NCBI GenBank assembly: GCA_963823335.1
Contig: CAWGLD010000001.1
Coordinates: 192,001-256,000 of the forward strand
DNA: 64,000 nucleotides
Direction of reading: 5' to 3'
From: an uncultured delta proteobacterium
Lineage (GTDB): Bacteria > Desulfobacterota > Desulfobacteria > Desulfobacterales > B30-G6
In this document: positions 10,099-55,317 of the stretch, piece after piece
Numbering within the stretch: position 1 is the first letter of the stretch
How the letters are laid out: the number at the start of each line of letters is the position of its first letter
The notes under the pieces: model-generated
What the model saw: only the letters and a program-made list of their open reading frames with translations
The model's database searches: none
What the model was told of the DNA's origin: nothing
Program-made: the position numbers and the translations under genes

Positions 10099-10138
10099 AA
10101 AAAATCGTGCTGCAATTTTATGACTCACGACCTTGTCC
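10099..10138 (-). promoter_or_regulatory. 40-bp bipartite palindromic motif (degenerate copy)
   Basis: aaaaaatcg-N5-caattttat-N6-cgac-N3-gtcc. Confidence 0.5.
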
Positions 10139-10154
10139 CCACAAAACATACACC

Positions 10155-11054
10155 CTAACGGTTGATACTGATAACCGGGCATCCCGCTCTGACAATTACC
10201 TGTTCGATATTACTCCCCAGCCGGGTATCCTCCTGGGATGATTTCTGGGTGTGGTGTGCCATGACAATAAGGTCGGCATGCTTTTCCCGTGCATACTTCA
10301 CGATCTCTACATAGGGGATGCCTTCCCAAACCTCGAAATCGTATTCCGCCACATCTTTCATCTCAGGTAAATATCGACCCCGTATCCGCCGCAGGGATTC
10401 CCGAATGTTCGACTCGATTTCATCCTGGGTCATACTTCTCCCCAGATGCATGCTGCCAATATCCAGGGCGTGGAAAATATGAAGTTCGCAGGCCAGGGTC
10501 TTGGCGAGTTTCAGGGCAAACCGAAAAGCAGCATCGGAGGCCTTGGAAAAATCGGTGCCGAAAACCACATTGGACATGCCACCCCAGAAAGAAGCCGCCG
10601 GCCGGTTGACCACCAGCAAGGGACAGGGTGCCACCTTTGCCACGCGTTGCAGCGTAGAACCCACCACGCTCTTTTTATAGACGGAATCCTCGTCATCCCC
10701 GGTGCTGCCGCCCATAACGACCAGGTCCGGAGCTAATTCCCGGGCTGCCCTCAATATCTCCCGATGCGGCAGACCGATGGCCACTTTGATTTCGAAATTA
10801 CGGACTGTCTCAAGCTGTTTTGAATAGTGAATCTTGATCTCCTCCTCCACCCAGGCAATGTACTCGTCGTCAAGTTCGACTTTTTCTTTTGTCTTGATGT
10901 CCAGCACCACCTGGCTGAAACCACGCGTAGGCACTCCCAGCACATGAAAAATACATATCTGTGCATCATAAGACTGGGCCATGTTGAAGGCCACCCGTGC
11001 AGCATGGTCACAGGCCTCTGTAGCGGATGTGGCAAACAGTATTTTCTTAAACAT
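10155..11054 (-). CDS. Tandem-domain universal stress protein
   Basis: KKILFAT, DLVVMG, GS...CPLLVV, GTDFS, ADLIVMA. Confidence 0.92.
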   Translation of the reverse strand: MFKKILFATSATEACDHAARVAFNMAQSYDAQICIFHVLGVPTRGFSQVVLDIKTKEKVELDDEYIAWVEEEIKIHYSKQLETVRNFEIKVAIGLPHREILRAARELAPDLVVMGGSTGDDEDSVYKKSVVGSTLQRVAKVAPCPLLVVNRPAASFWGGMSNVVFGTDFSKASDAAFRFALKLAKTLACELHIFHALDIGSMHLGRSMTQDEIESNIRESLRRIRGRYLPEMKDVAEYDFEVWEGIPYVEIVKYAREKHADLIVMAHHTQKSSQEDTRLGSNIEQVIVRAGCPVISINR

Positions 11055-11095
11055 ATGTCACCTCGTTGGCGGGTTGAAAGAGAATATCCAACACC

Positions 11096-12484
11096 CTATT
11101 CTTTTAGTTTTAAATGCTCTGGAATTTCGACCATGCTGATCACCAGGGGTTTGAGGAAAGACCATTTAATGCCGATTTTATATTCCTCTTCTAAATCACG
11201 AATCGCATCCCAGCAGTTGTGACAAGGGGCGATCACCATTTCGGCACCCGTGTGCAGGATCTGATCCCGTTTGGTGATCAGGGCCTTGTTCCGCTGAGGC
11301 CGGAAGAGACCGATACCGTTAAACCCCCCGCCGCCGCCGCAGCAATAATTGTGTTCCCGGTTCGGTGACATCTCCATAAAATAGCCGGGCTCGACAATAT
11401 AGCTCATGATTTCCCGCGTGATATCCTTTAATCCGTTATTGCGAACATAGTTACAGGAATCCTGAAGCGTTACCGGCATTTTGAGGCGTTTGGACGGGTC
11501 GATCTTGAGTTTTCCTTCCCGCAGCGCTTCGGCCAGCCATTCAACATAATGGATCGATTCCACAGGGGGTTTCCCCGTACTTCTGCCGGCCCAGTAGGGT
11601 CCTTCCACAACGGTGGCACGATGGGCATGGCCGCACTCCGTCCCCACCATCCGCTTGGGCTTGAGCCGCTCCATGGCAGCATAGACATGCTCCACCTGCA
11701 TTTTACAGGCTGCCCAGTCACCGGCAAACATGGCCAGGCTGGTCTGCTCCCATCCACTGGTTGGTACGGTCCAATTCTCACCGGCCAGATGAAAAAGTAT
11801 CGCCGCCTCGGCCAGATCCTCAGGATAGTGCTTCACCTCCCTGGCGTTGACCGTGTAGAGGATGTCGGCACCCTCCTTGTCCACCGGCACCTCGAGACCC
11901 GGATAGTCCTCTTCGTATTCCTCCACCATCCATTCGAAGGTTTCCACGAAATCCTGGTCCGTAACATCCATTTGGGCACGGTAAACCCGATGCATACCGG
12001 CTCCGATTTTCATCTCCCAGGGGACAAATCCCTGCTGATAGCACAGACCCCTGAGGTAGCCGAACATAACCCCCATGTCGATACCGTGGGGACAATACAT
12101 GCCGCAACGATTACAGCAGGTGCATTTGGCCCATGCCGTTTCCATGACCATCTGCATGAATTCGTTGTCCACGTTTCCTTTACGCTTGACGATTTCACCC
12201 AGTGTCGATTGAATCTTGTAGGCAGGCACCTGTTTGGGATCCTGGTCGTTGATCAGGTACAGAAAACAACTGTCAGCACACATGCCGCAGTGGGCGCATA
12301 TTTCCAGCCAGGTTTTCATCCTGGACTTCAAGGTGTTCTGAATCGTTTTCCAAAGCAGACTCTGGTCAATATCGAGGGATTTCATCTCCTGATAATATTG
12401 CTTCCCGCCGGTATCCCCCAGAAGGGCTTTGAGTTCTTCTTCGGTTTCTATTGGTTTCTTGTTGCAGAATTTTCCTTCAGGCAT
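11096..12484 (-). CDS. hmcF: Hmc complex cytoplasmic Fe-S/CCG subunit HmcF
   Basis: [42 protein letters not shown]; operon position. Confidence 0.9.
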
Positions 12485-12522
12485 GTTGCATCCTTCCTTA
12501 AATTTGCTTATTTCCGGCTGGT

Positions 12523-13200
12523 TTACCAGGCCATACCTTTTCCTTTCATTCCGCCACGCTTGATACCATAATCCATACCCAGTTGCGCCCGTGAAGCAAA
12601 AAACAGAACGATGTGCGATAACTTGGTAAAGGGGGCGGCGATCAGCAGCGCTTCACCGCACAGGATGTGGGTTGTTAACCAGAAAGTGTAGGAACCCAGC
12701 TCGTATCGGGCGACAAGACCGGTCATAAAAGGCGCCACGGCTAAGAGCAGAATGACATAATCATACCACGTGGTAAGAATCCTGACCTCGGGCAGTGCAA
12801 TTCTTCTAAGCGCCAGAAAAACAGCACTGACAATAACCGTCCAGGTGAGAATATCGGCCAGTAACGGATTCAGCGTAATCAGCGAAATACCGATTTTCTC
12901 CTTCAGGAACAGGTTATGCGCCAGCAAGAACAGGGGCACTAGGACGGCCCCGATATGAAAACCGAAAAAAATGACGGTCATAAAGGGTTGCTTGCGCCAG
13001 CCATAGGTGCCAAAAGGTATAAGCCATTTCACAATGGAATTCACGGCACCTTTAAATCCCTGAAACGGGTAGGCTTTGTAAGCCACACGGTCCAGTTGCC
13101 AGCTCAACCCCCGGAAATATAGAACAAACCTGACCAGCATGCCGATCAGAAAAATGCCCAAAGACAACCAGAACATCGGGCCGGTTAGAAAATCGTACAT
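12523..13200 (-). CDS. hmcE: Hmc complex NarI-like cytochrome b subunit HmcE
   Basis: [34 protein letters not shown]. Confidence 0.88.
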
Positions 13201-13335
13201 TGATGCCTCCATTGACAGCATGGGTTCGAGGGTTCAAGGGTTGGAGGGTTCGAGGGGTATGACCACCGCTCATAGTTTATAGCGAAAAATCAAAACCAAC
13301 GCCACGAACACAACAAACACAATGAGCCCCATAAA

Positions 13336-13479
13336 CTAAAATGTTCGCTTCTTTTCATCCCTGCCGCTCAGAAAAAGCCAGAACAGCAGCAGTCCCACAA
13401 GGACGGCCCCCATCAGCATGTAGGTAATGCTTTTCGAGTGCAGCAGGAAATCATGCAGTGTGTAAAACAATGCGTCCAT
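13336..13479 (-). CDS. hmcD: Hmc complex small membrane subunit HmcD (47 aa)
   Basis: Not in ORF track: MDALFYTLHDFLLHSKSITYMLMGAVLVGLLLFWLFLSGRDEKKRTF; GAGAGG RBS; between hmcC and hmcE. Confidence 0.85.
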   Translation of the reverse strand: MDALFYTLHDFLLHSKSITYMLMGAVLVGLLLFWLFLSGRDEKKRTF

Positions 13480-13507
13480 GAAACCTCTCATCAACTAAGA
13501 AATACTT

Positions 13508-14677
13508 CTATTTGTGCTGATAGTCCGGATGCTCATAAAAAATAGGCATCCGGGTGGTAACAAATCGATAAACCACAACACCGATGGTAACGACAAACAA
13601 CGAGATGGCGATTTCCATCCAGCTGGGAAAGTAGCGGTCGGCCGGCGGCAGGTGCCAGTTGAATGCCACCACAGAGATGTTCAAGCGATTCAGCACGACT
13701 CCCAGAACTGCCAGGACAGAGGCCCAGCGCACCAGACGCAGATTCCGATCACGCGCTGCAATGGCATATAAAAATGCCGGAAATGCAACAAATCCCAGCA
13801 GTTCCACCAGGAACCACAGCCCCCATCCCGTGGCCAGATAGTGCCAGTTGTTGTCCATGGCAATACCGATGAATTTGACACCCACATAACCCATCATCAC
13901 AAAAGCAGCTGCTTTACCAAAGCCCAGAGCCACGCCTTCGCTTTCTTTCAGATGGGTCTCGTCCATCTTGTGGTGCAGGTGGCGATGCGCCAGGGAGCCT
14001 TCGAATATCACCATGGAAAGCCCGGCAAAAACACTGGAAACAAAAAAGAATACCGGCAGATAGCCCGAATACCACAGAGGGTGAAGCTTGGAGGGTACAA
14101 TCATGTAGAGCGCCCCCAGAGAAGACTGGTGCAGGGTGGAAAGAATTACGCCGAATATGGTCAGTACCAAGGTCAGGCGGACCACCAGGTTCCGAATTTT
14201 TTTCAGACCGAGCCATTCGAGCGCGGCAGGACTGAATTCGATAAAAAGGACGCTGAGGTAGAGAAAAACGCACAAGCCCACTTCGAATAACAGCGATGTG
14301 GTGCCTGGCGAAACAAAAATCGGATATGGCAGGCGCCAGGGTCTACCCACATCATAGTGGAGTGCCATTACCACCAGTGCATACCCCAGAAAAGCGGTCA
14401 AAATGGCGGGGCGAACTGCTGAATGGTAGCGTTTCAATCCGAAGATATAGCATGATGCCGAGGTGACATAACCACCTGCAGCAAGGGCCACACCGCACAA
14501 CAGGTCAAATCCTATCCAGATCCCCCAGGGATTGTTGTCATCGAGGTTTGTGACCGCACCCAGCCCGCCCGTGAACCGCAACACCGTGATGATCAGACCA
14601 CATAATATGATCATGCCGGCTATCACATTGAAAGGCGTAAAAATTGACTTATTCACCTGCGCCGTCTCTTGTGGCAT
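13508..14677 (-). CDS. hmcC: Hmc complex NrfD/HybB-family membrane subunit HmcC
   Basis: PWGIWIGFD, DVGRPWR, STLHQSSLG, KLHPLW. Confidence 0.92.
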   Translation of the reverse strand: MPQETAQVNKSIFTPFNVIAGMIILCGLIITVLRFTGGLGAVTNLDDNNPWGIWIGFDLLCGVALAAGGYVTSASCYIFGLKRYHSAVRPAILTAFLGYALVVMALHYDVGRPWRLPYPIFVSPGTTSLLFEVGLCVFLYLSVLFIEFSPAALEWLGLKKIRNLVVRLTLVLTIFGVILSTLHQSSLGALYMIVPSKLHPLWYSGYLPVFFFVSSVFAGLSMVIFEGSLAHRHLHHKMDETHLKESEGVALGFGKAAAFVMMGYVGVKFIGIAMDNNWHYLATGWGLWFLVELLGFVAFPAFLYAIAARDRNLRLVRWASVLAVLGVVLNRLNISVVAFNWHLPPADRYFPSWMEIAISLFVVTIGVVVYRFVTTRMPIFYEHPDYQHK

Positions 14678-15772
14678 CTATTTTTCCTCCTTCGGTGTCT
14701 CAGAACCCGGGTCTTCGGGCGCTGGTTGTGACTCCGCCGCTTCTTTGGCAGCGTCTTCCAGGGCACGTTTAACTTCCAGGTTGATGGCAGCCTCCTTTTC
14801 CTTGGCCATGCTGTCTTTCATCTTGGCCAGCTTGATCTTCATCTCCTCGTTGGCGTCGGCAACCGTCTGCGCCACCGCATGGATGCGTTCCTCGTCGGCA
14901 ATTTTATCCTTGCGTCTTGAGATGGCGTAGATACCGGTAAGCAACACCGGCCACAATGCCACCACCACAGGAACCGCTGCCAGAGGACCCGCAGTGAAAC
15001 TGGATGCTGTCTGAGTACCAAGATCTTCACGCATATCGATCTGGGAAAAGGGCGTTCCAGATAGGGTCATCCAGCTGGTACCACCCATCTCCTGTTCGCC
15101 ATAAATATGGTCGATATAGGCCTCTGGATATTTTTCAATACGCTGCCGGGCTAGCTTGATAAGTCTTTCGCGTGGTCCAAAGGTCAAAGCCTCTTTCGGG
15201 CATATCTCCACGCACCCGGGAAGCAATCCTTTTTCAATACGCGGGTGGCACATGGTGCATTTGGTCACGCGCGGCGTCAATGGCTCGTTATATTCGTATG
15301 TCGGAATATTGAAGGGACATGCCACCATACAGTATCGGCAACCCACACACAGGGATGCATCGTAAATGACGGCACCGGTCTTGACTTTTCGCAATGCTCT
15401 GACAAAACAGGCTGACGCACAGGCCGGCTCCAGACAGTGATTGCACTGTTTTTTCACATATACAGGCAACCGGCTGTCCTTTTCCCTGAATCGATTGACC
15501 ACTGTATAGGTATCGGATCGTGTCCGGCGGCTTTGGTCCAGAACACTCAGGTCGTCAAAAGGTTGTTCCGGAACCGGAAGTTCATTGACCTTGTTGCAGG
15601 CCTCCTCACACTTCCGGCACCCGATGCATCGGGTTGTGTCGTGCAGAATTCCAAAGCTGTCTGGATAGCCACCAAACTGCTTGTTTGAAGCCGCTTGCGC
15701 ATGACCCGCAGTCGTCACACCAGCACTTGCTGCACCTAACCAGCCAAGAAACTGTCTTCGGGATATCCCCAT
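14678..15772 (-). CDS. hmcB: Hmc complex periplasmic 4Fe-4S subunit HmcB
   Basis: Tat SRRQFL; CIGCRKCEEAC, CNHCLEPACASAC, CVGCRYCMVACP, CTMC..CVEICP; C-terminal TM. Confidence 0.92.
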   Translation of the reverse strand: MGISRRQFLGWLGAASAGVTTAGHAQAASNKQFGGYPDSFGILHDTTRCIGCRKCEEACNKVNELPVPEQPFDDLSVLDQSRRTRSDTYTVVNRFREKDSRLPVYVKKQCNHCLEPACASACFVRALRKVKTGAVIYDASLCVGCRYCMVACPFNIPTYEYNEPLTPRVTKCTMCHPRIEKGLLPGCVEICPKEALTFGPRERLIKLARQRIEKYPEAYIDHIYGEQEMGGTSWMTLSGTPFSQIDMREDLGTQTASSFTAGPLAAVPVVVALWPVLLTGIYAISRRKDKIADEERIHAVAQTVADANEEMKIKLAKMKDSMAKEKEAAINLEVKRALEDAAKEAAESQPAPEDPGSETPKEEK

Positions 15773-16009
15773 ATTAGCACCTCAATATGTTATCGCTGAA
15801 ACAAACTTTTTCCTCAGTTGCATTTCCCATATAAGTTGAAAATCGATACTCATCAACAAGCCCCCATTCCATCAACACAAGAAACGCAATGAATCCAATG
15901 AAACCATTGATAGCTTTTTAGGGGTTTAGGCTGTAGGCTGTTAGCTGCCAATTGCTCGCCGCTTTCAGCCACCCACCACCCCTCCAAACCTATCCCCTCC
16001 TACCCTTGT

Positions 16010-32836: not shown

Positions 32837-32848
32837 AGTAAATCCTTA

Positions 32849-32888
32849 ATAATATCGTGTTACGATTTTATATAACGCGACGTTGTCG
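32849..32888 (-). promoter_or_regulatory. 40-bp bipartite palindromic motif before lysC
   Basis: ataatatcg-N5-cgattttat-N6-cgac-N3-gtcg. Confidence 0.6.
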
Positions 32889-32894
32889 TTCAAC

Positions 32895-33359
32895 TTAGAT
32901 TTCAAGCTCTCTTACCAGATCCATCCCCATCTGTCCACAACCTGTTAAGGTGATAATCCGTATGTCATCTTCCTCGATATCGAAACGAATGACCATGTCT
33001 TCCACCAGGTCCCCTTCACATAGCCTTTCGGCCCACTCGACGGCAACGACACCATGGGCGTCCATGGTGTCCAACAATCCCGTGCTTTCGATATCCATGG
33101 CACTGGAAAGCCGATAGAGGTCTGCATGAAACAGGGGTACCCTGCCCGGGTATTCGTTGATAAGTGTGTAGGAAGGGCTGGTAATCACAAACCCTTTTGG
33201 AACAGCGATACCCCTGGCGAGTCCCTGCACGAATACCGTCTTTCCACTCCCGAGATCACCTATCAGAGCAATGATCAAACGGCCTGTCGCTGCCCGACCG
33301 ACAGTCCGGCCCAAGTTGAACGTGTCTTGCGGGGACCGGGATGTCACCTGACGCTGCAT
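32895..33359 (-). CDS. tsaE: tRNA t6A biosynthesis ATPase TsaE
   Basis: GDLGSGKT, TSPSYTL, HADLYRL, VEW. Confidence 0.95.
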   Translation of the reverse strand: MQRQVTSRSPQDTFNLGRTVGRAATGRLIIALIGDLGSGKTVFVQGLARGIAVPKGFVITSPSYTLINEYPGRVPLFHADLYRLSSAMDIESTGLLDTMDAHGVVAVEWAERLCEGDLVEDMVIRFDIEEDDIRIITLTGCGQMGMDLVRELEI

Positions 33360-38082: not shown

Positions 38083-39065
38083 GCGGTCCTTTGCTTTTCT
38101 TTTTCCAGTTCTTCATAGGCCATGATAATATCCTGAACCAGCTTATGCCGGACCACATCCGTTTTGCTGAAGAATGCAAATCGAATCCCCTTGATATTGC
38201 CCAGAATATTTTTGGTCTCGATCAATCCGGATGGTTTGTTGGACGGAAGATCGATCTGTGTAATATCGCCGGTGATCACGGCCTTGGAACTGAAACCGAT
38301 ACGCGTCAGAAACATTTTCATCTGTTCAGAGGTGGTGTTCTGGGCCTCGTCCAGAATAACGAACGAATCGTTTAATGTTCTCCCTCTCATGAAGGCTATG
38401 GGTGCGACTTCGATAATGCCCCTTTGCAGAAGACTCGAAACCTTTTCAAACCGCATCATGTCATGCAGCGCATCATACAGCGGTCTTAGATAGGGATCCA
38501 CCTTTTCCGACAGGTCACCCGGGAGAAAGCCAAGCGCCTCCCCTGCTTCCACGGCAGGTCGTGTCAGAATGATCCGGTTGACAATTCCCTTGGACAGAGC
38601 GGAGACGGCCATGGCCATGGCCAGATATGTTTTGCCGGTTCCTGCAGGACCGATACCGAAAACGATATCATTGTTCCGGATGGCATCGATGTATTCTTTT
38701 TGCGCCCGGCTTTTCGGCGTAATGGCACGGTCTTTAGACGTCACATACACCGTATCCAGAAAGATGGACCTTAGATCGGCCGTGTCATCTTCAGTCAACA
38801 CCCTTATGGCATAGTCCACATCGTTCTCATAGATAGGGTAGCCTTCCTTCAGCAACTGATACAACTGATCCAGAATCTTCTTACCCAGGATTGCAACGAT
38901 GGCGTCTCCCTGGATGTGCACGGTATTGCCCCTTGCATGAATCTTGACATCCAGGGCGCTGGCGATTCTCTTTAAATTGTCGTTGTGTTCACCAAAAAGA
39001 TGCCTGACCAGATCCACATCCGGGTAGGTTGCCCTTTCCTGGTGATTTTCATCGTTCTTCTGCAT
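38079..39065 (-). CDS. phoH: PhoH-family ATPase (YbeZ-like)
   Basis: GPAGTGKTYLA, TRPAVEAGE, GFLPG, MRGRTL, DEAQN. Confidence 0.96.
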   Translation of the reverse strand: MQKNDENHQERATYPDVDLVRHLFGEHNDNLKRIASALDVKIHARGNTVHIQGDAIVAILGKKILDQLYQLLKEGYPIYENDVDYAIRVLTEDDTADLRSIFLDTVYVTSKDRAITPKSRAQKEYIDAIRNNDIVFGIGPAGTGKTYLAMAMAVSALSKGIVNRIILTRPAVEAGEALGFLPGDLSEKVDPYLRPLYDALHDMMRFEKVSSLLQRGIIEVAPIAFMRGRTLNDSFVILDEAQNTTSEQMKMFLTRIGFSSKAVITGDITQIDLPSNKPSGLIETKNILGNIKGIRFAFFSKTDVVRHKLVQDIIMAYEELEKEKQRTA

Positions 39066-39089
39066 AAATGCCCTTGCCCTGTTACCAAA

Positions 39090-39129
39090 ATAAAATCAGC
39101 TTACGATTTTATCAAACGCGACGATGTCG
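39090..39129 (-). promoter_or_regulatory. 40-bp bipartite palindromic motif before phoH
   Basis: ataaaatca-N5-cgattttat-N6-cgac-N3-gtcg. Confidence 0.6.
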
Positions 39130-39289
39130 CTATTTTGCGAAAAGTTAAATTCTTTTCTTAACATATACGCTCAGACCAATGCAAATCACAAATTTGCCTG
39201 AGGTCCAAATGAAAAATACCTTGACGAAGGGAGCCTGTCTTTGTTAATTTACTTTTTTAATTATTTATCTAAAAATAAATTCGTGCCGT

Positions 39290-46728: not shown

Positions 46729-46742
46729 TCTTGGTATGGACA

Positions 46743-47888: not shown

Positions 47889-47967
47889 GGATCTTCTCCC
47901 AATAAGTTGGGAGAAAGGGTTCAATCCTTGAATCCTTAATTTGGATCCACTCTTTGGGAGATGATCC
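47889..47967. mobile_element. Empty copy of the four-helix-bundle cassette ends
   Basis: TIR ggatcttctcccaa/ttgggagatgatcc; matches both flanks of 42541-42812. Confidence 0.6.
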
Positions 47968-48038
47968 ATATTTTATCATGTTTGAAGTGTTTCGTCACAT
48001 CAGAATTCTGATCTGCCATGAATTGCCGCCAAGATAGT

Positions 48039-48950
48039 CTATCCCCGCCATTCGGTGTCATCCACCGTGGTCTTGAAATCCGGTGCAACGATCTTCGGTG
48101 CGTCTAAAGATTCAGCTTTATCCTGTTCCTGGGGTGATGGTTTGCCGACAAATACAAGACGTTGGCGTTTGCAATTCCTGCAGGCCTCCAGTACCTTCAA
48201 GGAGCAGTCAGGCGTGTAGGCATCATAATTGATGGTGGAAAGGTTGTTTTCCAGGGTAAAGAGGTCGGAAGTCCTGGCACAGGCGCCACAGCCGATGCAG
48301 CCGACCCTGCACACGCTGATGACGTCCTTACCCTTGTCCTTGTTGGCACAGGTTACCGCCAGCATCCGTTCGGCTTTGAAAGGGGTGATGCTGATAATAT
48401 TGCGCGGGCAAACCCGGCCGCAGGCCCCACAACCGACGCATTTTTCATAATCCACCGTTGCCAGGCCGTCAACCACATGAATGGCATCGAAGTCACAAAC
48501 CCGTGTACAGTCACCGAAACCGAGACATCCGTACGTGCATCCCTGAACATCGGTGACCAGATTGGCGGCCACACAACGCATGTCACCGCGGTATTCGCTT
48601 TTTCCCAGACGGTCCCCAAAATGAGCGCCGCAGTGTACGATGGGACGATAAGGGAGCGTCTCTCCCACTTCGACCCCCATGACACCGGCCACTTCCAGCG
48701 CACAAATGTTCCCGCCCACTGTGCACAGGTTGACCTGCTCATGTTCCAGGGCCACCGCCTCGGCGTATTCGCCGCAACCCACGTATCCACAGCCACCACA
48801 GTTGGCGCCGGGAAGGGCTTCAATGATAGCCAGGACCCGCTGATCCACGTCCACATGAAATCTTCTGTTGGCCCAACCGAGAATAGATGTCAGCACCAAT
48901 GCCATAAAAAGCATCGTTGCAGCGGATAGACCGATGGTAATCCAGGTCAT
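48039..48950 (-). CDS. rnfB: Rnf complex subunit B
   Basis: LPGANCGGCGYVGC, CTYGCLGFGDC, CVGCGAC, CIGCGAC. Confidence 0.93.
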   Translation of the reverse strand: MTWITIGLSAATMLFMALVLTSILGWANRRFHVDVDQRVLAIIEALPGANCGGCGYVGCGEYAEAVALEHEQVNLCTVGGNICALEVAGVMGVEVGETLPYRPIVHCGAHFGDRLGKSEYRGDMRCVAANLVTDVQGCTYGCLGFGDCTRVCDFDAIHVVDGLATVDYEKCVGCGACGRVCPRNIISITPFKAERMLAVTCANKDKGKDVISVCRVGCIGCGACARTSDLFTLENNLSTINYDAYTPDCSLKVLEACRNCKRQRLVFVGKPSPQEQDKAESLDAPKIVAPDFKTTVDDTEWRG

Positions 48951-49029
48951 TGACCCTCCAAATTTTCCCCTGCACTGCTCTGGCGGGGAGTACCCGTCCT
49001 AAATATCCGGTTCACGGGACCAGATCCCT

Positions 49030-49725
49030 CTACATGATCGCCGCCCGAATACCACTGTCCACCCCGGTAAAACCCATGAAGGCCATAGCCAGGATGCCGC
49101 CGACGATCAGGGTGATGGCAGCCCCCTTGAAAGGTGCCGGAATATCACATAGATCGAGCTCTTCACGGATGCCGGCCATGATGACAATGGCGATGGTGAA
49201 ACCCACCCCACCGAAGATACCCAGCACCAGCGCATGCCCCAGATCCCAGGCTTCGGCAGGATTTTCAACACCCACAACCTTGCTCATGACCAGAAGGCAG
49301 GCAAACAAAATGGCACAGTTGGTCGTGATCAGCGGTAAAAAGACACCAAAAGACTTGTATAAAGGCGGATAAAACCTGCGCATGTACATTTCCACAAACT
49401 GAACTGACGACGATATGGAAAAGATATAGACGATATAGGACAGGATGGTCAGGTCAATTCCGGATGCCTGCTCGGTCGGTATGAAAAACCCGGCCACCCA
49501 GCTCGAGATAGGTGCACCCGGGGCCAGGACAAGCGTGGTAATGGTCCAGCTGATGAATACGGCGATGGTCATTACAAATGTCACGGCACTTCCCATACCC
49601 ACAGCCATGTCCACCTGGCGGGACACCCCGATGAACGGACAGATACCGACAAAATAGTAAAGCACAAAATTGTTGATCAGGGCTGCACCAAGGGCGATCA
49701 AAAAAATGTCAAAAAGATACATCAT
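49030..49725 (-). CDS. rnfA: Rnf complex subunit A
   Basis: [33 protein letters not shown]. Confidence 0.94.
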
Positions 49726-49728
49726 GGC

Positions 49729-50355
49729 CTATTTCCCCCCTTGGGCCTTAGCAGCGCGCATGGCATTGACCCAGTTGATCAACGCCAAGAGCATGCCAAA
49801 AGTTAAAAATGCGCCGGGCGGCAGCACCATGATCACCCAGTCGGGCCAGGTCTCCGGAAGAACAGGTATGCCCAACAGCATGCCGGTGCCCAGGATCTCA
49901 CGAACCGCGGCAATACTGGCCAGGGCGAGGCCAAACCCCAGGGATTGGCCCAGGGCATCACCCGCCGCAGCCAAGGGTCCCTGTCTGGAAGCACAGACTT
50001 CACAACGACAGATGATGATACAGTTGACGATGATCAAAGGAATATACGGCCCCAGAGTCTTGCTCATCGGGTACATGTAGGCACTCAGAACGCGATCGAC
50101 AATGGTCACAAAGGTGGCAATGGTCAAGGTGAAAATAACGATCCGCAAATGAGGTTTCAGCAGACCCCGGATCAGGCTGATGATCACATTGGCACACAGC
50201 AGCACCACGCCGACAGCCATGGCCATGGTCAGGGCGGGTTTCAGACCGCTGGTCACTGCAAGGGTCGGACACAGCCCGAGAAGTTGCCGGTATACCGGGT
50301 TTTCCGGCAGGATGCCTTGAACAAAGCGCTCAATCGGTGTTGGAAGTTGGTTCAT
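49729..50355 (-). CDS. rnfE: Rnf complex subunit E
   Basis: ENPV..LGLCPTLAVT, IPLIIVNCII, LPPGAF. Confidence 0.94.
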   Translation of the reverse strand: MNQLPTPIERFVQGILPENPVYRQLLGLCPTLAVTSGLKPALTMAMAVGVVLLCANVIISLIRGLLKPHLRIVIFTLTIATFVTIVDRVLSAYMYPMSKTLGPYIPLIIVNCIIICRCEVCASRQGPLAAAGDALGQSLGFGLALASIAAVREILGTGMLLGIPVLPETWPDWVIMVLPPGAFLTFGMLLALINWVNAMRAAKAQGGK

Positions 50356-51041
50356 GGCCGCACCTCTGTAGATAACTGGACAGCACCCTGAGCGAGTTGT
50401 CCTTTGATATCACTCACGGTCTGGTTTACAATCCAGGCAACACTGCGGGAAGAAATGGTCGCACCGGTTATTGCATCGATGGCGTGCAATTCCTTAGCGG
50501 CCCCTTTTAGCACCACCAGGGGGGTGTCTGTCTTTTTTCCCACAAACTGTTTTCGCCATTCAGGAAAGGTAATCTTGTTGCCCAGGCCGGGTGTCTCTTT
50601 CTGCTCGAGAATAAAGAGACCCGTTATGGTTTCGGCATTCGGGTCCATGCCGATGAGGGCTTCGATGGTGTCTGCGTAGCCCTGCCCCCTGGATTTGACC
50701 ACCCAGCCGGACAGCAATTTGCCACGGGATACCCGAAAAATGGAATACGTATTTGTCCTTTGACCTTTCTTTACGGATACGGTGCCGGGAACTATCTCCA
50801 TTGGATGCTGGGTGTCGGCGGTTTTTGGTACAGCATCGTCCCCCCACACAAGTGCTGGTACCTGGGTCAGTGTTTCGTTCATCTTGTTGGCCGCAATTAA
50901 CCCGCTGAGTCTGGTCTGAACAAAGGCCAGGGAAGCACCAAAGCTGATGGCAAGCACAAGCACAAGCCAGGCCTGAACCAGGACATTGTTTTGAAACATA
51001 CCGCCACTACCCGTCACACTGCTTTTTATGGTTATTCCCAA
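50352..51041 (-). CDS. rnfG: Rnf complex subunit G (FMN-binding)
   Basis: GY..I, ETPGLG, DAITGATISS; start may be 50999. Confidence 0.92.
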   Translation of the reverse strand: MGITIKSSVTGSGGMFQNNVLVQAWLVLVLAISFGASLAFVQTRLSGLIAANKMNETLTQVPALVWGDDAVPKTADTQHPMEIVPGTVSVKKGQRTNTYSIFRVSRGKLLSGWVVKSRGQGYADTIEALIGMDPNAETITGLFILEQKETPGLGNKITFPEWRKQFVGKKTDTPLVVLKGAAKELHAIDAITGATISSRSVAWIVNQTVSDIKGQLAQGAVQLSTEVRP

Positions 51042-52025
51042 TTAAACGCCTCCAAAGGGCCTGGGGATGGTCCAGCGGTTGATTAGCGGGGTCAGGGCAT
51101 TCATGAGAAGCACGGCAAACATGACACCTTCCGGGTATCCGCTGAACAGACGCAGTATCATTACCAGCACACCGATACCGATACCAAAAATCCATTTCCC
51201 TCTGGGCGTCAACGGGCTGGTTACCGGATCGGTGGCGATGAAAAAAGCCCCGAACAGAAGTGCCCCACCCATGACATGGTGCACCACGGTCCATGAATCG
51301 GCCGGACTGGTCAGATTGGCAATACCGCCAATGGCCACAGACGCGGCTATCATACCAGCCGGGATTTCCCAGGAAGCCACACGTCGAACACACAGGTAAA
51401 GCCCACCCAGCAGACAGGCAGGCACGCTGGTTTCTCCCAGTGAACCATTGGTATATCCCCAGAACATAGGTGCCAGAGAGGTGCTAACATCGGACAGTTT
51501 GTGTGCTGTCAGGGGTGTCGCCTGGGAGAGAATATCCACGTTGGCGGATAGATCCACATATCCGGAAGCGCCAAGACTGCCGGCAAAGGATATCATGACA
51601 AAGGCACGTCCCACCATGGCCGGGTTGAAAATGTTCATCCCCACACCACCAAAGACCATTTTTCCGATACCCATGGCGACCATGGCGCCGATACAGCCCA
51701 CGTACCAGGGGGCCGTCGCCGGCAAAGACAATCCCAGGATCAATCCGGTCACCACGGCGGATAAATCGCCGACACTCACCGGTTTGGAACACATGCGGGT
51801 AAAAACCAACTCGGCACCCAGACAGCTTGTTACACAGATCAGCAGCTGCATGACGGCCGCCCATTTAAAAAACCACACCGCCGCAATCACCAGGGGGGTC
51901 AAGGCGATAATCACATCACGCATCATGCCCGGGATGGTCATACCCATGTTGAACATATGGGGAGATGGGGCCACGTGGATAACGGGGCTGTTCGGGTGGG
52001 CATCGTTTTTTTGTTTTGCGTTCAT
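51042..52025 (-). CDS. rnfD: Rnf complex subunit D
   Basis: SPH, FGGVGMNIFNPA, SQATPL, GSLGETS, ATDPVTSP, YPEGV; ATGA overlap with rnfC. Confidence 0.94.
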   Translation of the reverse strand: MNAKQKNDAHPNSPVIHVAPSPHMFNMGMTIPGMMRDVIIALTPLVIAAVWFFKWAAVMQLLICVTSCLGAELVFTRMCSKPVSVGDLSAVVTGLILGLSLPATAPWYVGCIGAMVAMGIGKMVFGGVGMNIFNPAMVGRAFVMISFAGSLGASGYVDLSANVDILSQATPLTAHKLSDVSTSLAPMFWGYTNGSLGETSVPACLLGGLYLCVRRVASWEIPAGMIAASVAIGGIANLTSPADSWTVVHHVMGGALLFGAFFIATDPVTSPLTPRGKWIFGIGIGVLVMILRLFSGYPEGVMFAVLLMNALTPLINRWTIPRPFGGV

Positions 52026-53413
52026 TTTCTCGCTTCTGCTGCAATCCGGGTCTTGCCCGTTCGGATGAGCTGCACCAGGGGCAGCCCTGCCGGGCATATA
52101 TATGAACAGGAACCACATTCAAAACAGGCCAAAATATTGTATTTGCGTGCCAGATTCAATTCATTGAGCCGGGAGGCCGTCGCGATCTTGGTAGGCACCA
52201 GGTTCATGGGACAGACATCCACACAGCGACCGCAACGAATGCAGACAGTGCGTCCCACCCGCCGTATTTCTTCATGGGTCAGAACCGTAATGCCACTGGT
52301 TCCTTTGGTTACCGGGATGCCGGGGTTTGTAAATGCAAAACCCATCATGGGACCGCCGGCTATGATACGGGCTGCTGTCTGCCGCAGACCACCGCAATAG
52401 TCGATGAGTTCACCCATGGCAATACCGATAGGAACCAGCAGGTTCTTGGGCTGGACAATGCCACCGCCGGTGACGCTCACCACACGGTGAGTCAGGGGGA
52501 GACTGCGCATCACGCCCCGGGCCAGACTGGTAGCCGTGGCCACGTTTGTCATGGCCACTCCGATATCGGAAGGAAGGCCTCCCAGGGGAACCTCCCGGTT
52601 CAAAACGGCTTTGATCAGGTGCTTTTCACTTCCCTGAGGATATTTTGTCCTGAGAACAGCGATGTGAATTCCGGCGCCGGATGCCGCGCGCCGCAGTGAT
52701 GCCACCGCTTCCATCTTGTTGTCCTCGATACCGATATAGGTCTTTTTTGCACCTACGGCCCTGGTTGCCAGCAAAGCCCCTGCCACCACAGCCTCGGGGG
52801 CTTCCACCATCACCCGGTAATCGGTGGTGAGATAGGGTTCGCACTCGCATCCGTTGACCATCAAGGTATCGATGGGTTTCTGGTCATTGGAGGTGATTTT
52901 CACGTGCGTAGGGAAGGCTGCACCGCCAAGTCCCACGATACCAGCCTCATGAATAGCCTCGGATATTTTTTCAGGAACCATGGTCTGGTAGGTTTTCTGG
53001 GGCCATTTTCCACCAAACATTTGGTCCCACAACGCTTGACCGTCAACCTGTCCTCCAGCGGCTTTGATGGCAATAGCCTGTAGATGTCGCCCATTTGCCA
53101 AGGTCACCGTTTCCATCTTCTGGACCACACCGGAGATGGGGGCGTGCAGGGAAGCGGAGACAAAAACCTCGCCTTTGCCGACCATTTCTCCGAAAATTAC
53201 CGCTTGTTTGGCTTTGACCATGGGTGTGCAGGGCCCGCCGATGTGCTGCTGCAGGGGCAGAAGTACCTTTTCCGGAGTGGGCATGATTTCGATGGGCGAA
53301 TCAGCTGCCAGGTTTTTTTGCTCCGGTGGATGAACCCCGTGTGTAAAAGTACCCCGTCCAGGATACGAGTCCGTGGTGTAATGTTTTTGATAGCGCTTTC
53401 TCAGAAAAACCAT
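52022..53413 (-). CDS. rnfC: Rnf complex subunit C
   Basis: QHIG, GIVGLGGAAFPTHVK, NGCECEPY, KYPQGSEK, GGPMMG, CIRCGRC, CFECGSC. Confidence 0.95.
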   Translation of the reverse strand: MVFLRKRYQKHYTTDSYPGRGTFTHGVHPPEQKNLAADSPIEIMPTPEKVLLPLQQHIGGPCTPMVKAKQAVIFGEMVGKGEVFVSASLHAPISGVVQKMETVTLANGRHLQAIAIKAAGGQVDGQALWDQMFGGKWPQKTYQTMVPEKISEAIHEAGIVGLGGAAFPTHVKITSNDQKPIDTLMVNGCECEPYLTTDYRVMVEAPEAVVAGALLATRAVGAKKTYIGIEDNKMEAVASLRRAASGAGIHIAVLRTKYPQGSEKHLIKAVLNREVPLGGLPSDIGVAMTNVATATSLARGVMRSLPLTHRVVSVTGGGIVQPKNLLVPIGIAMGELIDYCGGLRQTAARIIAGGPMMGFAFTNPGIPVTKGTSGITVLTHEEIRRVGRTVCIRCGRCVDVCPMNLVPTKIATASRLNELNLARKYNILACFECGSCSYICPAGLPLVQLIRTGKTRIAAEARK

Positions 53414-53439
53414 TTATCTGTTCATTTCAAACAAGAATA

Positions 53440-53515
53440 TTGAAGTACCCCGCAGCATGCAAAGCACTGCCGAACGGCAAAACCTGCCGGGGAGGCTCTC
53501 GCTGTTGCAGTTCAC
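53440..53515 (+). mobile_element. Mini-element family B, degenerate copy in rnfC leader
   Basis: ttgaagtaccccgcagc...ctgccgaacggca...ctcgctgttgcagttcac. Confidence 0.5.
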
Positions 53516-53595
53516 CCATTGTTCGGTTTTTAATCGGCTCGACACGACAGACTGGGTCTGCAATCTCATTCCTTATGTCGTGACCTGGCATGATT

Positions 53596-53617
53596 GTTAT
53601 TGACCTAAGTCAATAAC
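53596..53617. promoter_or_regulatory. Palindrome upstream of rnf operon (candidate operator)
   Basis: GTTATTGAC-ctaa-GTCAATAAC, 9-bp perfect arms. Confidence 0.5.
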
Positions 53618-53883
53618 CTGATGAACTTTTAAATGAACTTTCACAGTTTTTAAGAAAGAAGTATGGCTATGGGGATATATGGGAAACAAGCTGAAAATCC
53701 CGTTTTCAGGACTGCGGGATAAGCAGCAAATGAAATAGAAGAACCTTACCAGCGCAAAGGGCTGGGCCGGAGAGAAGATTCCCTGCAGCTGTTCGACTGT
53801 CTTTGACCCTGCCTTCAGACCGCAGGGAACCCGCAGAAGTCTTGCTGCAGGGTATGCTTCACTATTTCAGGAAAAACTGCGGA

Positions 53884-54348
53884 TTAATCGCCCTGTTCCG
53901 CCATGTAATCGTCATAAATGGTCTCGAGAATATTTTTATGTTTGGCCTCTTCCTGGGACAGGATTTTAAAAACTTGAACAAACTCGGGTTTGTCCGCCGT
54001 CTTTGCGGCCAGATCGTTATATAGCTGCAGGGCCACTTCTTCGCGCTTCATGGCCAGACGCAGGATCTCTGTGTAATGCATGCCCTTCTCATAGGTAACA
54101 TCCACCATGTAGTCACTGCGCTTAATATCCGGGATCCATTCAAATTTATATTGGGCAATTTTCTCTTTCTGATTGCCCAGATTTTCAAGCATACTGACGT
54201 GTTTCTTTTCCTCTTTTGCAAAACCTTCGAATGTCTTCTTCACGGCCTCAAAAGATTCATTGTCGGCGATCTCTTTGTAAAAAGACACGGCTTCTTTCTC
54301 TTTATTCAAGGCATATTCGATAATCTCGTCCACCGAATTGAAATTCAT
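53884..54348 (-). CDS. Ferritin-like/rubrerythrin-family di-iron protein (no rubredoxin domain)
   Basis: E..A..FY, EEKKH, LAMKRE, EEAKH; AGGAGG RBS. Confidence 0.88.
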   Translation of the reverse strand: MNFNSVDEIIEYALNKEKEAVSFYKEIADNESFEAVKKTFEGFAKEEKKHVSMLENLGNQKEKIAQYKFEWIPDIKRSDYMVDVTYEKGMHYTEILRLAMKREEVALQLYNDLAAKTADKPEFVQVFKILSQEEAKHKNILETIYDDYMAEQGD

Positions 54349-54449
54349 TGAGTCCTCCTGTTGTGTTTTGGGTAGTCAATTGCACTTAAATCGAGCAATT
54401 ACTGCATTTTTAATAAGGTTATCGTTCTATTTTCATGAAATGTTCAAAA

Positions 54450-54611
54450 TAACCCGGGTATTTCACGAACCTGATCGGTTTTGGCGCAAGGCATTTTAGC
54501 CTGAAGTCGTAGTCAATTACTGCGAAGGCTGAATAACACAGTGCCAGGGCCGATCAGGAAAGCCCGAAGGGTGAAACTTGACTTGTCAAGTTTCATGAAA
54601 TGTTCGGGCTA
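54450..54611. mobile_element. Long-hairpin MITE/structured element family C, copy 2
   Basis: TIR taacccgggtatttcacga / tcatgaaatgttcgggcta; TA termini. Confidence 0.65.
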
Positions 54612-54782
54612 TTCGGCCAGAGCATAGTAACATCTTATGGGTGACACGATCTTGCCCTGCTTCTTGAGCTCCTGGAATACTTTTGATACCTCTTTGTTCT
54701 CCACGCCAAGTTCCTTGGCAATCTCTCCCGCTTTTACGGGTTTTCCTGCTTTCTTCATGGCAGTGACCACTTTCTTTTGCAT
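54609..54782 (-). CDS. Small winged-helix DNA-binding protein (57 aa)
   Basis: Not in ORF track: MQKKVVTAMKKAGKPVKAGEIAKELGVENKEVSKVFQELKKQGKIVSPIRCYYALAE; GGGAGG RBS. Confidence 0.85.
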   Translation of the reverse strand: MQKKVVTAMKKAGKPVKAGEIAKELGVENKEVSKVFQELKKQGKIVSPIRCYYALAE

Positions 54783-54796
54783 TGTTTCCTCCCTTG

Positions 54797-54836
54797 ATAA
54801 AATCGTTACCCGATTTTATGATACACGACACCGTCG
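54797..54836 (-). promoter_or_regulatory. 40-bp bipartite palindromic motif before wHTH gene
   Basis: ataaaatcg-N5-cgattttat-N6-cgac-N3-gtcg (perfect). Confidence 0.65.
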
Positions 54837-54908
54837 CTCATCTGGTGAGCGGCTTCCCCTTTGTTCTTGCCGGTGAGACCGCCCTTGGCAAATGCGAACG
54901 TGCCTATA

Positions 54909-55265
54909 TTACGCCGCATTTAGTTCATGCTGCAACCATTTTTTAATATCCCCGGATATAGCATAAACTCCTTTTAGACGGCCGTTTTCCGATATATACT
55001 CCGTTTCCAGATCTTGCGGCATCCGGATTTCTGCCAATTCTTCAGCGTTTTCTGAATTTCGGCGAACTAGAAATATGACAGGTTTTTTTTTCCATGTATT
55101 CACGACAAAATAGTGGCTCACATCATCCTTGGAGCGAACGACATAATTGCCCCTTGCCCAGTTGTTACCCCACTCAAGATACAACCGCACAGCCTCTTCG
55201 GGGGTCATATCCCAATCAATAACGTTGATCAGTTCCCTGTTTTTCTTAATTTCTTCTAAGGTCAT
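54909..55265 (-). CDS. DVU0772-family protein
   Basis: IDWDMTPEEAVRLYLEWGNNW, YFVVNTW, LVRRNS; GGAG RBS. Confidence 0.8.
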   Translation of the reverse strand: MTLEEIKKNRELINVIDWDMTPEEAVRLYLEWGNNWARGNYVVRSKDDVSHYFVVNTWKKKPVIFLVRRNSENAEELAEIRMPQDLETEYISENGRLKGVYAISGDIKKWLQHELNAA

Positions 55266-55277
55266 GGTATTGTCTCC

Positions 55278-55317
55278 ATAAAATCGCATGGCGATTTTAT
55301 CAATGGCGGCTATGCCG
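55278..55317 (-). promoter_or_regulatory. 40-bp bipartite palindromic motif before DVU0772-like gene
   Basis: ataaaatcg-N5-cgattttat-N6-cggc-N3-gccg. Confidence 0.65.

Follow-up and report, generated by a model that had tools for sequence, protein, structure and literature searches.

The question raised by this locus is what a two-palindrome motif of constant geometry is doing just upstream of five start codons in the window, that is, the whole 64,000-nt stretch of DNA analysed. A preliminary description had offered three readings: an operator for a global regulator, a two-hairpin leader RNA, or an orientation-biased REP-like repeat.

Copies in the window

All five copies that had been described were recovered as matches to ATAAAATCG-N5-CGATTTTAT with up to three mismatches, beginning at 10099, 32849, 39090, 54797 and 55278. 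All are on the minus strand. Only 0.03 such matches are expected by chance, and none of 100 shuffles gave five or more. The second palindrome, CGRC-N3-GYCG, is equally spaced in every copy, as had been noted, and the distance from the end of the AT palindrome to the start codon, previously put at 12-31 nt, was measured as 31, 12, 24, 14 and 12 nt for copies 1 to 5. The 40-bp geometry is real, but the conserved unit is longer, approximately 48 bp from an A-rich lead to the T past the palindrome.

Copy 1 (10098..10145, minus strand; AT hairpin 10099-10121, GC hairpin 10127-10139, lead 10140-10145) is degenerate, with two mismatches and a profile E value of 0.0022, and precedes the start (10067) of a response-regulator receiver gene (PF00072). 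Copy 2 (32848..32895, minus strand; AT hairpin 32849-32871, GC hairpin 32877-32889, lead 32890-32895; E 7e-10) is followed immediately by AAGGA and then by the ATG (32836) of an aspartokinase gene of the lysC type. It occupies the entire 58-bp gap between tsaE and lysC and is therefore inside a transcription unit. Copy 3 (39089..39136, minus strand; AT hairpin 39090-39112, GC hairpin 39118-39130, lead 39131-39136; E 1.6e-10) is found in a divergent intergenic region before the ATG (39065) of phoH. Copy 4 (54796..54843, minus strand; AT hairpin 54797-54819, GC hairpin 54825-54837, lead 54838-54843) precedes the ATG (54782) of a 57-aa ORF with a weak HTH, and AAGGGAGG begins 1 nt past the element. 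Copy 5 (55277..55324, minus strand; AT hairpin 55278-55300, GC hairpin 55306-55318, lead 55319-55324) is a GCGGC/GCCGC variant in which GGAG starts at the first base past the palindrome; the ATG (55265) belongs to a 118-aa ORF matching no Pfam family. No Rfam family matched at gathering score across the whole window, and the region 54700-55400 gave three chance-level matches only (E 0.3-0.5). Nor did comparison with the families described in Rfam and the literature reveal a matching repeat family.

Structure of the element

The unit consists of the A-rich lead, a 5-bp GC hairpin and a 10-bp AT hairpin, with the consensus AWAARA-GCGRC-N3-GYCGC-GTYNN-ATAAAWTCGY-N3-RCGAWTTTAT-T (position table built from 109 oriented copies). 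Watson-Crick pairs make up 89.5% of the paired cells, compared with 25-37% pairing when the partners are slid. Two-sided changes that maintain pairing are present in both stems, at 13 of the 15 pairs and in 198 cells (shuffle mean 62.5, maximum 77). The change from CGAC/GTCG to CGGC/GCCG, which had been called compensatory, is genuine: the variable pair is A-T in 101, G-C in 50 and something else in six of 157 copies genome-wide. Orthologues differ in the same manner; at C1:740608 a T-A pair in G000 is C-G in G001, G004 and G007, and at C4:122301 two species possess ATGAC..GTCAT and two others ATAAA..TTTAT. Covariation of the half-sites fits a hairpin and not two independently read half-sites. 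Template switching within a DNA palindrome can also yield compensatory changes, without selection on the folded strand. Overall, G.T and A.C mismatches do not differ in number (64 versus 51), so that they do not establish which strand folds. Folding with DNA parameters slightly prefers the top strand (-10.26 versus -9.82 kcal/mol; paired p 1e-11). The GC hairpin, with its 5-bp stem, has a mean of -4.8 kcal/mol. The loops of both hairpins are asymmetric, reading purine-N-A on the top strand and including GCGAAGC-type loops; this asymmetry follows the orientation of the element and not that of transcription (30/49 and 37/58 copies, against 5 and 5 in the mirror form).

Copy number and genomic placement

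The genome, from an uncultured relative of sulfate reducers, contains 219 near-matches to the AT palindrome, and none after shuffling. A profile search at E<=0.01 returned 260 hits. Full-length copies number 196, and all but six of them (190) are intergenic, in a genome that is approximately 85% coding by our own crude gene calls (all gene calls were made with a simple in-house caller). Most copies are singletons: only 29 neighbouring pairs closer than 1.5 kb occur among the 196 (-+ 10, +- 7, tandem 12). Nearly all are also individual in sequence, 156 of 157 being distinct 42-mers in which the variant pairs are freely combined.

The AT-hairpin end is the outer, gene-facing end of the unit. It is flush with a gene boundary in 129 of the 190 intergenic copies, compared with 19 for the GC end; when positions were randomised within the same gaps, 33.5 +/- 4.4 copies were flush (maximum 47 in 1000 trials). 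The boundaries met are a Shine-Dalgarno site or start codon in 59 cases, these copies lying <=30 nt upstream of a co-oriented start, and a stop codon in 70. The 5′-ends of tRNA-Gln and tRNA-Lys are also met, at gaps of -1 and 0, as are some -35 boxes; a -35/-10 pair follows closely downstream of at least 4 of 157 copies, and of none in a GC-end control. The GC end faces the remainder of the spacer, where other repeats accumulate. The positional bias across the genome is very strong. The rule seen in the window, where every copy is co-oriented and upstream of a start codon, does not extend to the genome: among the 190 copies, 104 are co-oriented with the gene on their AT side and 86 opposed to it, and the 70 stop codons met are those of converging genes.

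Opposed genes frequently end within the element. Of the 86 opposed copies, 42 have the stop codon at one constant position within the arm, and in 14 it overlaps the final T; the codon used is often the arm's own TAA (TGA in a variant). Neighbour-gene stop positions were equal in filled and empty orthologues at all three sites read. On the start side, the Shine-Dalgarno core begins 0-2 nt past the element in 22 of 36 copies. Where the ATG itself is flush, GGA is found in the loop of 7/13 copies versus 6/144 others (p 6e-6); at C4:129425 an old GGAGG has decayed on the far side of the insertion and GGAG is now present in the loop. Mismatches on the sense strand of start-adjacent copies comprise 21 G.T and 6 A.C, and those on the top strand of stop-adjacent copies 24 G.T and 18 A.C. 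Flushness increases with profile score: 18-24% of copies are flush at E>0.01 and 72% at E<1e-8. Selection retaining flush copies would explain this trend no less well than targeted insertion.

Orientation and replication

In 124 of 172 copies (72%; p 6e-9) the top strand coincides with the leading strand; for genes the figure is 58.5%. The bias is also seen among stop-adjacent copies (39/58 versus 41.5% expected; p 9e-5), and on contig C1 the strand rule is followed by 62 of 86 copies, on both sides of a skew switch near 1.0 Mb. The orientation bias is tied to the direction of replication and to the gene-facing end, not to start codons; in this respect the earlier notion of an orientation-biased REP-like repeat requires amendment, its REP-like part being supported.

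Distribution and age

The element is present in all nine genomes searched from the genus, which consists of uncultured Desulfobacterales, and in a single genome from a different family; it was not found in most of the related families searched. Orthologues of copy 2 (lysC) are present in G002, G004, G005 and G007, and none was seen in G001, G006, G008 or G009. For copy 4, G002 and G005 have an intact orthologue and G001, G004, G006 and G007 a decayed one; none was seen in G008. Copy 5 has orthologues in G004, G005, G006 and G007 and a remnant in G002, with none seen in G001 or G009. Decayed orthologues retain the 3′ arm beside the gene. As we read the alignments, an intact or decayed element is present in at least one other species at all 21 G000 sites examined. 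Since most sites are common to several species, the family is old and vertically inherited, with some gain, loss and decay. The one G000 site that is absent from the closest relative, G005, is present in decayed form in G001. No clearly young insertion was seen in G000, and we accordingly infer mobility from copy number and from presence and absence between species. The only clean empty/filled pair aligning on both flanks is lysC in G001 versus G002, the empty site reading AAAAA|TGAAGGA; with this single pair, the exact ends of the element and its target are provisional.

G003 has a subfamily of 24 near-identical copies that makes up the right end of a composite repeat of approximately 240 bp. 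In 15 of these copies the shared sequence extends for up to approximately 235 nt from the GC end; nothing is shared past the AT end, where the flanks are unique. The boundary rule is likewise found in G015, with 36 copies, 11 start-adjacent and nine stop-adjacent (four flagged as both); only 2 of 15 comparable sites are shared between G015 and G000.

Mobilising enzymes

Eight matches to Y1_Tnp (PF01797) were found in the genome. The 4 kb around each contain no element at E<=0.01; the nearest match, 3 kb away, has E 0.12. The three Y1 genes of approximately 320 aa have short inverted repeats of their own, the flanks of four Y1 matches carry other short repeats, and the one approximately 320-aa gene whose relatives were searched also occurs in element-free genomes (for example, 8 matches in G010 and 12 in G016). 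No TnpB and no cognate mobilising enzyme was found in the genome, and no adjacent transposase beside the copies. Target-site duplications of 2-6 bp were not enriched at any tested boundary pair among 157 copies.

Comparison with known systems

As with REP, BIME and REPIN sequences, these are short imperfect palindromes in hundreds of intergenic copies, with pairing preserved by compensatory change, long vertical persistence and association with other repeats in mosaics such as the G003 composite. Passages of PMC3733652 place known REPs <20 bp from ORF 3′-ends and describe REP termini as providing stop codons, both of which apply here; they also describe a conserved GTAG or CGTC tag at one end of REP palindromes, and neither is present at either terminus of our 109 oriented copies (AGCGRC..GYCGCGT and ATAAAWTCG..CGAWTTTAT). 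Unlike a REP, the unit possesses two different hairpins in fixed geometry instead of one, and always presents the same end to the gene. Inverted doublets, typical of REPINs and BIMEs, are not common, and unlike in a REPtron no Y1 (RAYT) gene has the element in the 4 kb on either side, at E<=0.01.

The reverse strand has the order of an intrinsic terminator (stop codon, AT hairpin, GC hairpin, T-rich tail), directly behind a gene in the 70 stop-flush copies. By comparison with terminators, the GC stem is short and weak, the tail contains on average 3.8 A or T in six positions and is no richer behind genes, and over half of the copies point the other way or precede a gene. Correia elements of Neisseria are 100-150 bp in length with clear terminal inverted repeats and a TA duplication. 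Like these and other MITEs that alter the expression of neighbours, the present repeats are small, non-autonomous and gene-side, and would be co-transcribed with their neighbours and able to add expression signals, but no duplication was found. In passages of PMC6006769 and PMC5027513, IS200/IS605 transposition is described as relying on recognition of hairpins, as leaving the target unduplicated, and as giving insertions whose orientation depends on the lagging-strand template. Miniatures of such elements resemble ours in the absence of duplication and in orientation following replication; the differences are that no parent element with the same ends was found, the Y1 genes have other ends, the unit is only 48 bp, and no cleavage or target tetranucleotide is defined.

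Origin and function

We consider it probable that the element is a dispersed, non-autonomous, REP-like hairpin repeat and not a regulator site. In the best reading it is old and partly co-opted. We infer how it spread and came to be used in three proposals, for which support falls in the order given. Copies would have spread as a mobile or copied element with the AT hairpin as terminus, as the G003 composite suggests. Spread may have proceeded via single-stranded hairpin DNA on the lagging-strand template, in the manner of IS200/IS605 and REP/RAYT; evidence pointing this way is the bias in strand, the absence of duplication and the presence of GNA-type loops. Finally, many copies may have been co-opted, the TAA of the arm, or TGA in a variant, serving as the stop codon of a converging gene and the GGAG of the loop supplying a Shine-Dalgarno site where the ATG touches the element; elsewhere the hairpins would come to lie at the end of a 5′-UTR or at the beginning of a 3′-UTR.

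It is possible, though on balance doubtful, that the hairpins are instead kept for a cis-acting function in mRNA, copying having only created sites among which function decides persistence. In the sense orientation they would provide 5′-UTR structure by the ribosome-binding site and, reversed, a 3′-end hairpin or weak terminator after the stop. Flush copies are indeed the best conserved, orthologous copies retain pairing through two-sided changes, TYTTWT follows the GC hairpin on the reverse strand, one G001 site has a longer GC hairpin between A and T runs in the GC-hairpin slot, and it is the 3′ arm beside the gene that survives decay. The excess of G.T over A.C on the sense strand of start-adjacent copies and the GGA loops at flush ATGs argue in the same direction, and the leader RNA originally suggested may for these reasons hold for the 59 start-proximal copies, leaving the others unexplained. 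However, stop-adjacent copies lack the mirror-image wobble pattern, the loop asymmetry does not track transcription, the GC hairpin has little stability, copies next to a stop codon show no enrichment of the A/T tract (p 0.96), and an RNA role explains neither the -35-flush copies nor the replication-strand bias. That bias, which holds whatever the orientation of the neighbouring gene, would suit a site that serves replication or is bound by a host protein reading DNA structure; hairpins or a cruciform on the lagging template would be recognised, for instance in priming or restart, supercoil handling or nucleoid organisation. The word ATAAAAnCG, present three times per unit (two direct, one inverted), would represent putative binding sites, and the lead AWAARAGCG resembles the arm ATAAAATCG; the top-strand loops and the slight folding preference for that strand are also congruent with it. 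We nevertheless regard such a site as very unlikely, as no protein was found whose presence tracks the element, flushness with translation signals is unexplained, and the restricted distribution among related families speaks against a general replication need.

The consensus ends, AAWAARAGCG and AATAAAATCG, are alike in inverted orientation at 8 of 9 positions, and ATTA is found on both sides of the insertion at C4:129425, as if the unit were a miniature cut-and-paste (DDE-type) element with imperfect terminal inverted repeats of 9-10 bp. The left 'repeat' is conserved at just 50-70% per position, the ends being only weakly alike, and neither the missing target-site duplication nor the strong replication-strand bias is expected of such an element, which we judge highly improbable. 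An operator for a global transcription factor is scarcely credible. The 9-5-9 palindrome has the form of a typical dimer site and a few copies do precede promoters, but there are approximately 200 copies in the genome, the half-sites covary, the second hairpin is obligatory, and the two half-site words were not found together in the relevant literature. The sites are not confined to promoters and 5′-regions as those of a regulon would be; many touch or overrun the stop codon of a gene converging on them, a position in which an operator would have no effect, and this candidate was rejected.

Returning to the REP-like repeat, what makes it unusual is that one end is mostly flush against the start signal or stop codon of a gene. 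A more specific version, which we think unlikely, is that the element constitutes a gene-boundary-seeking module: either its insertion machinery directs the AT terminus to the edges of functional units (ribosome-binding site, start codon, stop codon, tRNA 5′-end or -35 box), or the host retains the element at these edges as a form of punctuation, a source of stop codons and loop-presented Shine-Dalgarno sites, with mobilisation through single-stranded DNA by an enzyme other than a neighbouring RAYT. If true, this would add a REP-like class with a role in the 5′-UTR and at translation starts, together with a new targeting rule, and that rule would have emerged separately in two families, at genes that for the most part differ (13 of the 15 comparable sites are unshared).

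Copies in the Window

The five motif copies of the preliminary description are all present, each on the minus strand, and a search for ATAAAATCG-N5-CGATTTTAT with up to three mismatches returns five matches in the window where 0.03 are expected; none of 100 shuffles reaches five. From the first copy to the fifth, the palindrome ends 31 nt before the start of a response-regulator receiver gene, 12 nt before that of a lysC-type aspartokinase gene, 24 nt before phoH, 14 nt before a 57-aa ORF and 12 nt before a 118-aa ORF. Home-made gene calls and Pfam agree with the first three neighbors as originally named, the aspartokinase having ACT domains; the 57-aa ORF, described as a winged HTH protein, gives sub-threshold HTH matches only, and the 118-aa ORF, described as DVU0772-like, has no Pfam family at E ≤ 0.001. 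The latter (54909-55265, minus strand) is conserved genus-wide. The lysC copy wholly occupies the 58-bp gap between tsaE and lysC. A metatranscriptome contig (run X15) spans 38785-39178, i.e., the 5′-end of phoH, the element and 42 nt beyond, although such library contigs are blind to starts, ends and strand, and may include DNA. No junctions skipping an element are listed in two DNA runs.

Copy Number, Consensus and Hairpin Structure

The AT palindrome, with up to three mismatches, is matched 219 times in the source genome (4.37 Mb in 11 contigs, the window being positions 192001-256000 of contig C1) and never in a block-shuffled version of it. A GCGRC-N3-GYCGC hairpin flanks 116 of these matches, always on one side only, and at fixed spacing in 109; in the alignment of these 109 copies conservation spans roughly −24 to +23, counted from the palindrome, and is absent outside. 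Their consensus, AWAARA-GCGRC-N3-GYCGC-GTYNN-ATAAAWTCGY-N3-RCGAWTTTAT-T, defines an element of about 48 bp with an A-rich lead, a 5-bp GC hairpin and a 10-bp AT hairpin. The outer end of the latter is termed here the AT end, the opposite side the GC end, and the consensus orientation the top strand. A profile built from the 109 copies gives 260 matches at E ≤ 0.01, 196 of full length and 64 partial, the latter being mostly the AT hairpin by itself. Since the pair variants combine freely and 156 of the 157 indel-free full copies are distinct 42-mers, no recent burst is evident in this genome.

In those 157 copies 89.5% of cells show Watson-Crick pairing, compared with only 25-37% when the partners are slid. 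Two-sided changes occur in 13 of 15 pairs and 198 cells, where shuffled partners give a mean of 62.5 and a maximum of 77. Pair 5/17 is A-T in 91 copies with T-A as the alternative in 41, pair 7/15 is C-G (115) or T-A (20), pair 9/13 is T-A (78) or C-G (49), and one GC-stem pair is A-T (101) or G-C (50). Two-sided changes also separate orthologous copies (C1:740608 and C4:122301, by contig and position). Mismatches over all copies, 64 G.T and 51 A.C, do not discriminate between the strands, but those of the start-adjacent copies do, with 21 G.T versus 6 A.C. The predicted RNA energies are modest (GC hairpin −4.8 kcal/mol, AT hairpin −5.4). The loops are asymmetric: among start-adjacent copies 30 of 49 combine a purine at +10 with A at +12, as do 37 of the 58 that are stop-adjacent, the mirror form being found in five of each.

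Placement at Gene Boundaries

According to our simple home-made caller, by which about 85% of the genome is coding, 190 of the 196 full copies are intergenic. The gene on the AT side is co-oriented in 104 of these and opposed in 86, so the preliminary statement that the motif is always co-oriented and before start codons was a sampling effect of the window. Among co-oriented copies the start codon lies within 30 nt beyond the element in 59, of which 39 are at 8-18 nt and 15 at −3 to +2 nt. In 70 of the opposed copies a stop codon overlaps the element or lies within 6 nt; it is a TAA inside the outer arm in 42, and overlaps the last T in 14. Of the 190 copies, 129 are flush at the AT end and 19 at the GC end; when positions within these gaps are randomized, 33.5 ± 4.4 are flush, and at most 47 over 1000 trials.

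The Shine-Dalgarno core begins 0-2 nt past the element in 22 of 36 copies, and GGA is found in the loop of 7 of 13 copies in which the ATG touches the element, versus 6 of 144 others (p 6e-6). Elements also touch the 5′-ends of tRNA-Gln and tRNA-Lys (gaps of −1 and 0), and a −35/−10 pair follows the element immediately in 4 of 157 copies by strict scan, versus none in the GC-end control, with more visible by eye. In general, the AT end is turned toward the closest functional unit, of whatever kind. Flanks sharing other repeats lie predominantly on the GC side (68 of 196 queries with matches, versus 18 on the AT side).

Three further repeats were observed. An unrelated hairpin repeat of about 83 bp, with GTTCTGCC..GGCAGAAC and CCTCGCAGC..GCTGCGAGG, lies at window 55475-55556; it has 175 BLAST matches in the source genome, each of the nine other genus genomes has many, and copies near the two-hairpin element favor its GC side (12 versus 1). 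A repeat of about 140 bp (window 54450-54589) has only eight matches in the source genome, but the genus genomes carry many partial copies at 85-94% identity. Another, of 143 bp, lies outside the window at C1:750086-750228 of the source genome (L156:14086-14228 as an extracted locus) and has dozens of copies in four genus members (G001, G004, G005 and G007), some 97-100% identical between species; its appearance is that of a miniature element active or exchanged in recent times.

Replication-Strand Bias

The GC skew of contig C1 flips from negative to positive near 1.0 Mb, for which reason the replication origin is probably located there; replication direction throughout is inferred from GC skew in a draft assembly. 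On this basis the leading strand carries the top-strand sequence in 124 of the 172 full intergenic copies whose local skew is clear (p 6e-9). Genes of this genome are co-oriented with replication in 58.5% of cases. Both positional classes show the bias: among stop-adjacent copies 39 of 58 follow it (p 9e-5), where the gene strands predict 41.5%, and among start-adjacent ones 36 of 49 do (p 0.04), where 58.5% is predicted.

Distribution and Orthologous Sites

Cross-genome counts were made with a 41-base pattern allowing up to two mismatches, the relatives being incomplete MAGs. The family extends to all nine other genomes of the genus, with 14-114 copies each; four genomes of a sister genus have one to six, another genus of the family has none, a genome from another family of the same order (G015) has 109, and the remaining 25 genomes searched have zero to four each. 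A one-genome-per-species scan found at least 113 stretches, and the matches listed include uncultured Desulfobacterales and Desulfobacteraceae MAGs, Candidatus Desulfatibia and an Olavius symbiont.

At all 21 source-genome sites compared with up to nine relatives, by eye from alignments, an intact or decayed element is present in at least one other species, and about two-thirds of these sites have at least one relative without it. The empty lysC site in G001, a genus member, joins AAAAA directly to TGAAGGA and aligns with the filled site of another (G002) on both flanks, with no duplication. At three stop-adjacent sites the neighboring gene stops at the identical codon position in filled and empty genomes, from which it follows that the element abuts or replaces the stop codon and leaves the protein untruncated; a variant arm in the source genome and G007 reads TGA, also a stop codon. 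At C4:129425 the old GGAGG has decayed on the far side of the insertion, and GGAG is found in the AT-hairpin loop. Decayed orthologues retain the gene-adjacent 3′ arm (C1:1879858 and C1:1890085). The region syntenic to C1:1879000-1888000 is found in three places in G004 (C21, C24 and C1) and two in G007 (C4 and C24); these equal-identity matches represent either a large duplication or assembly redundancy.

The placement rule applies in G015 too: of 36 copies from 30 loci, 11 adjoin starts, 9 adjoin stops, 4 are flagged as both and 12 as neither, this last group including −35 boxes and a tRNA CCA end. At only 2 of 15 G015 sites with a recognizable orthologue in the source genome is the element present in both. 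The flush placement in these lineages is therefore of largely independent origin.

In G003, another member of the genus, 24 copies are near-identical at variable positions. On the GC side 15 of these have up to about 235 nt in common, and beyond the AT end the sequence of all 15 is unrelated, which is evidence for the AT hairpin being a terminus; some 14 of the 24 lie flush against a start or stop in a crude ORF test. The composite reads, in order, a long left-end hairpin (TTGAATTCCCCGCTGC..), a CTGAAAG..CTTTCAG hairpin, a GTAG-containing REP-like hairpin and the two-hairpin element as its right end. Near-identical copies of about 240 bp (L289, L292, L294, L298, L308 and L309) have internal variants with and without a 24-nt block. 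A search of the source genome with this composite matches the internal REP-like part alone, in 95 places, which seldom adjoin elements (five on the GC side, one on the AT side).

Search for a Mobilizing Partner

None of the eight Y1-transposase matches in the source genome lies near an element. Three of these genes (C4:394753-395733, C4:263291-264334 and C1:782459-783409) encode proteins of about 320-350 aa with a C-terminal HTH, Pfam reporting Y1_Tnp plus a weak HTH_23 for those of about 320 aa, and each is bracketed by short inverted repeats of its own (GGGGACGTCC, GGGGACGATGG and GGGACGTTCG types), words that occur several times over in the genome. The genes of about 320 aa look like members of the TIR-flanked subclass with an HTH tail, a group for which no REPs are known according to PMC6006769. 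A 192-aa Y1 gene is also present. Cross-genome profiling covered one of the paralogues of about 320 aa; 32 of 41 related genomes, some of them element-free, have relatives of this gene, and it was rejected as the partner. Also dropped was a 187-aa gene that lies between two inverted copies (C4:131661-132224) and matches a Recombinase domain weakly, because element-free genomes carry it too (23 of 41 related genomes, order-wide). The 16 close pairs of copies enclose no common transposase, the intervening genes being unrelated housekeeping ones. TnpB gave no match in the source genome, no target-site duplication was found at the element, the Rfam comparison that had been proposed produced no match, and a literature search by motif words returned 19 chance hits and, among the 10 listed, no relevant paper with both palindrome 9-mers.

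Discussion

REP-type repeats are common, the known ones being mainly single palindromes behind genes of Proteobacteria, and their spread and use by the host are still disputed. Of the readings initially offered for the motif (an operator, a leader RNA or a REP-like repeat), the operator is contradicted by the element positions, and the data place the element among REP-like repeats. A promoter inside the element was rejected upon inspection of the sequences, as the −35-like and −10-like words are not conserved and transcription would begin within the ribosome-binding site or downstream of it. A terminator is not favored either: the stem is weak, and the tail is equal between the positional classes. 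Known REPs, too, lie <20 bp from the 3′-ends of ORFs and can supply stop codons, as described in PMC3733652. The element nevertheless departs from the REP/RAYT system, in that the defining features tested (the tag, the REPtron arrangement and doublets) are lacking, and it has further differences in its two-hairpin polarity and its flushness with start signals.

That the element may spread by a single-strand, hairpin-based route is suggested by three features: its strand bias, its asymmetric loops and the lack of a duplication; IS200/IS605 elements, according to PMC6006769, use the lagging-strand template. Flushness could come from the survival of useful copies, a reading favored by the rise of the flush share with conservation, or from targeting, which is favored by the independent flush sets of G015 and the near-identical copies of G003.

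The family is set apart by its uncultured Desulfobacterales host, its two hairpins and clear polarity, and by a replication-strand bias without a neighboring transposase. One end is nucleotide-exact at start signals as often as at stop codons, and at times the element supplies the stop codon or a loop-borne ribosome-binding site. If the insertion mechanism is what makes placement flush, this would point to a new rule of targeting; if selection does, it would be a clean natural case of a selfish repeat that has become gene punctuation. In either event, about 200 sites per genome will mislead regulon, sRNA and start-codon predictions in these MAGs.
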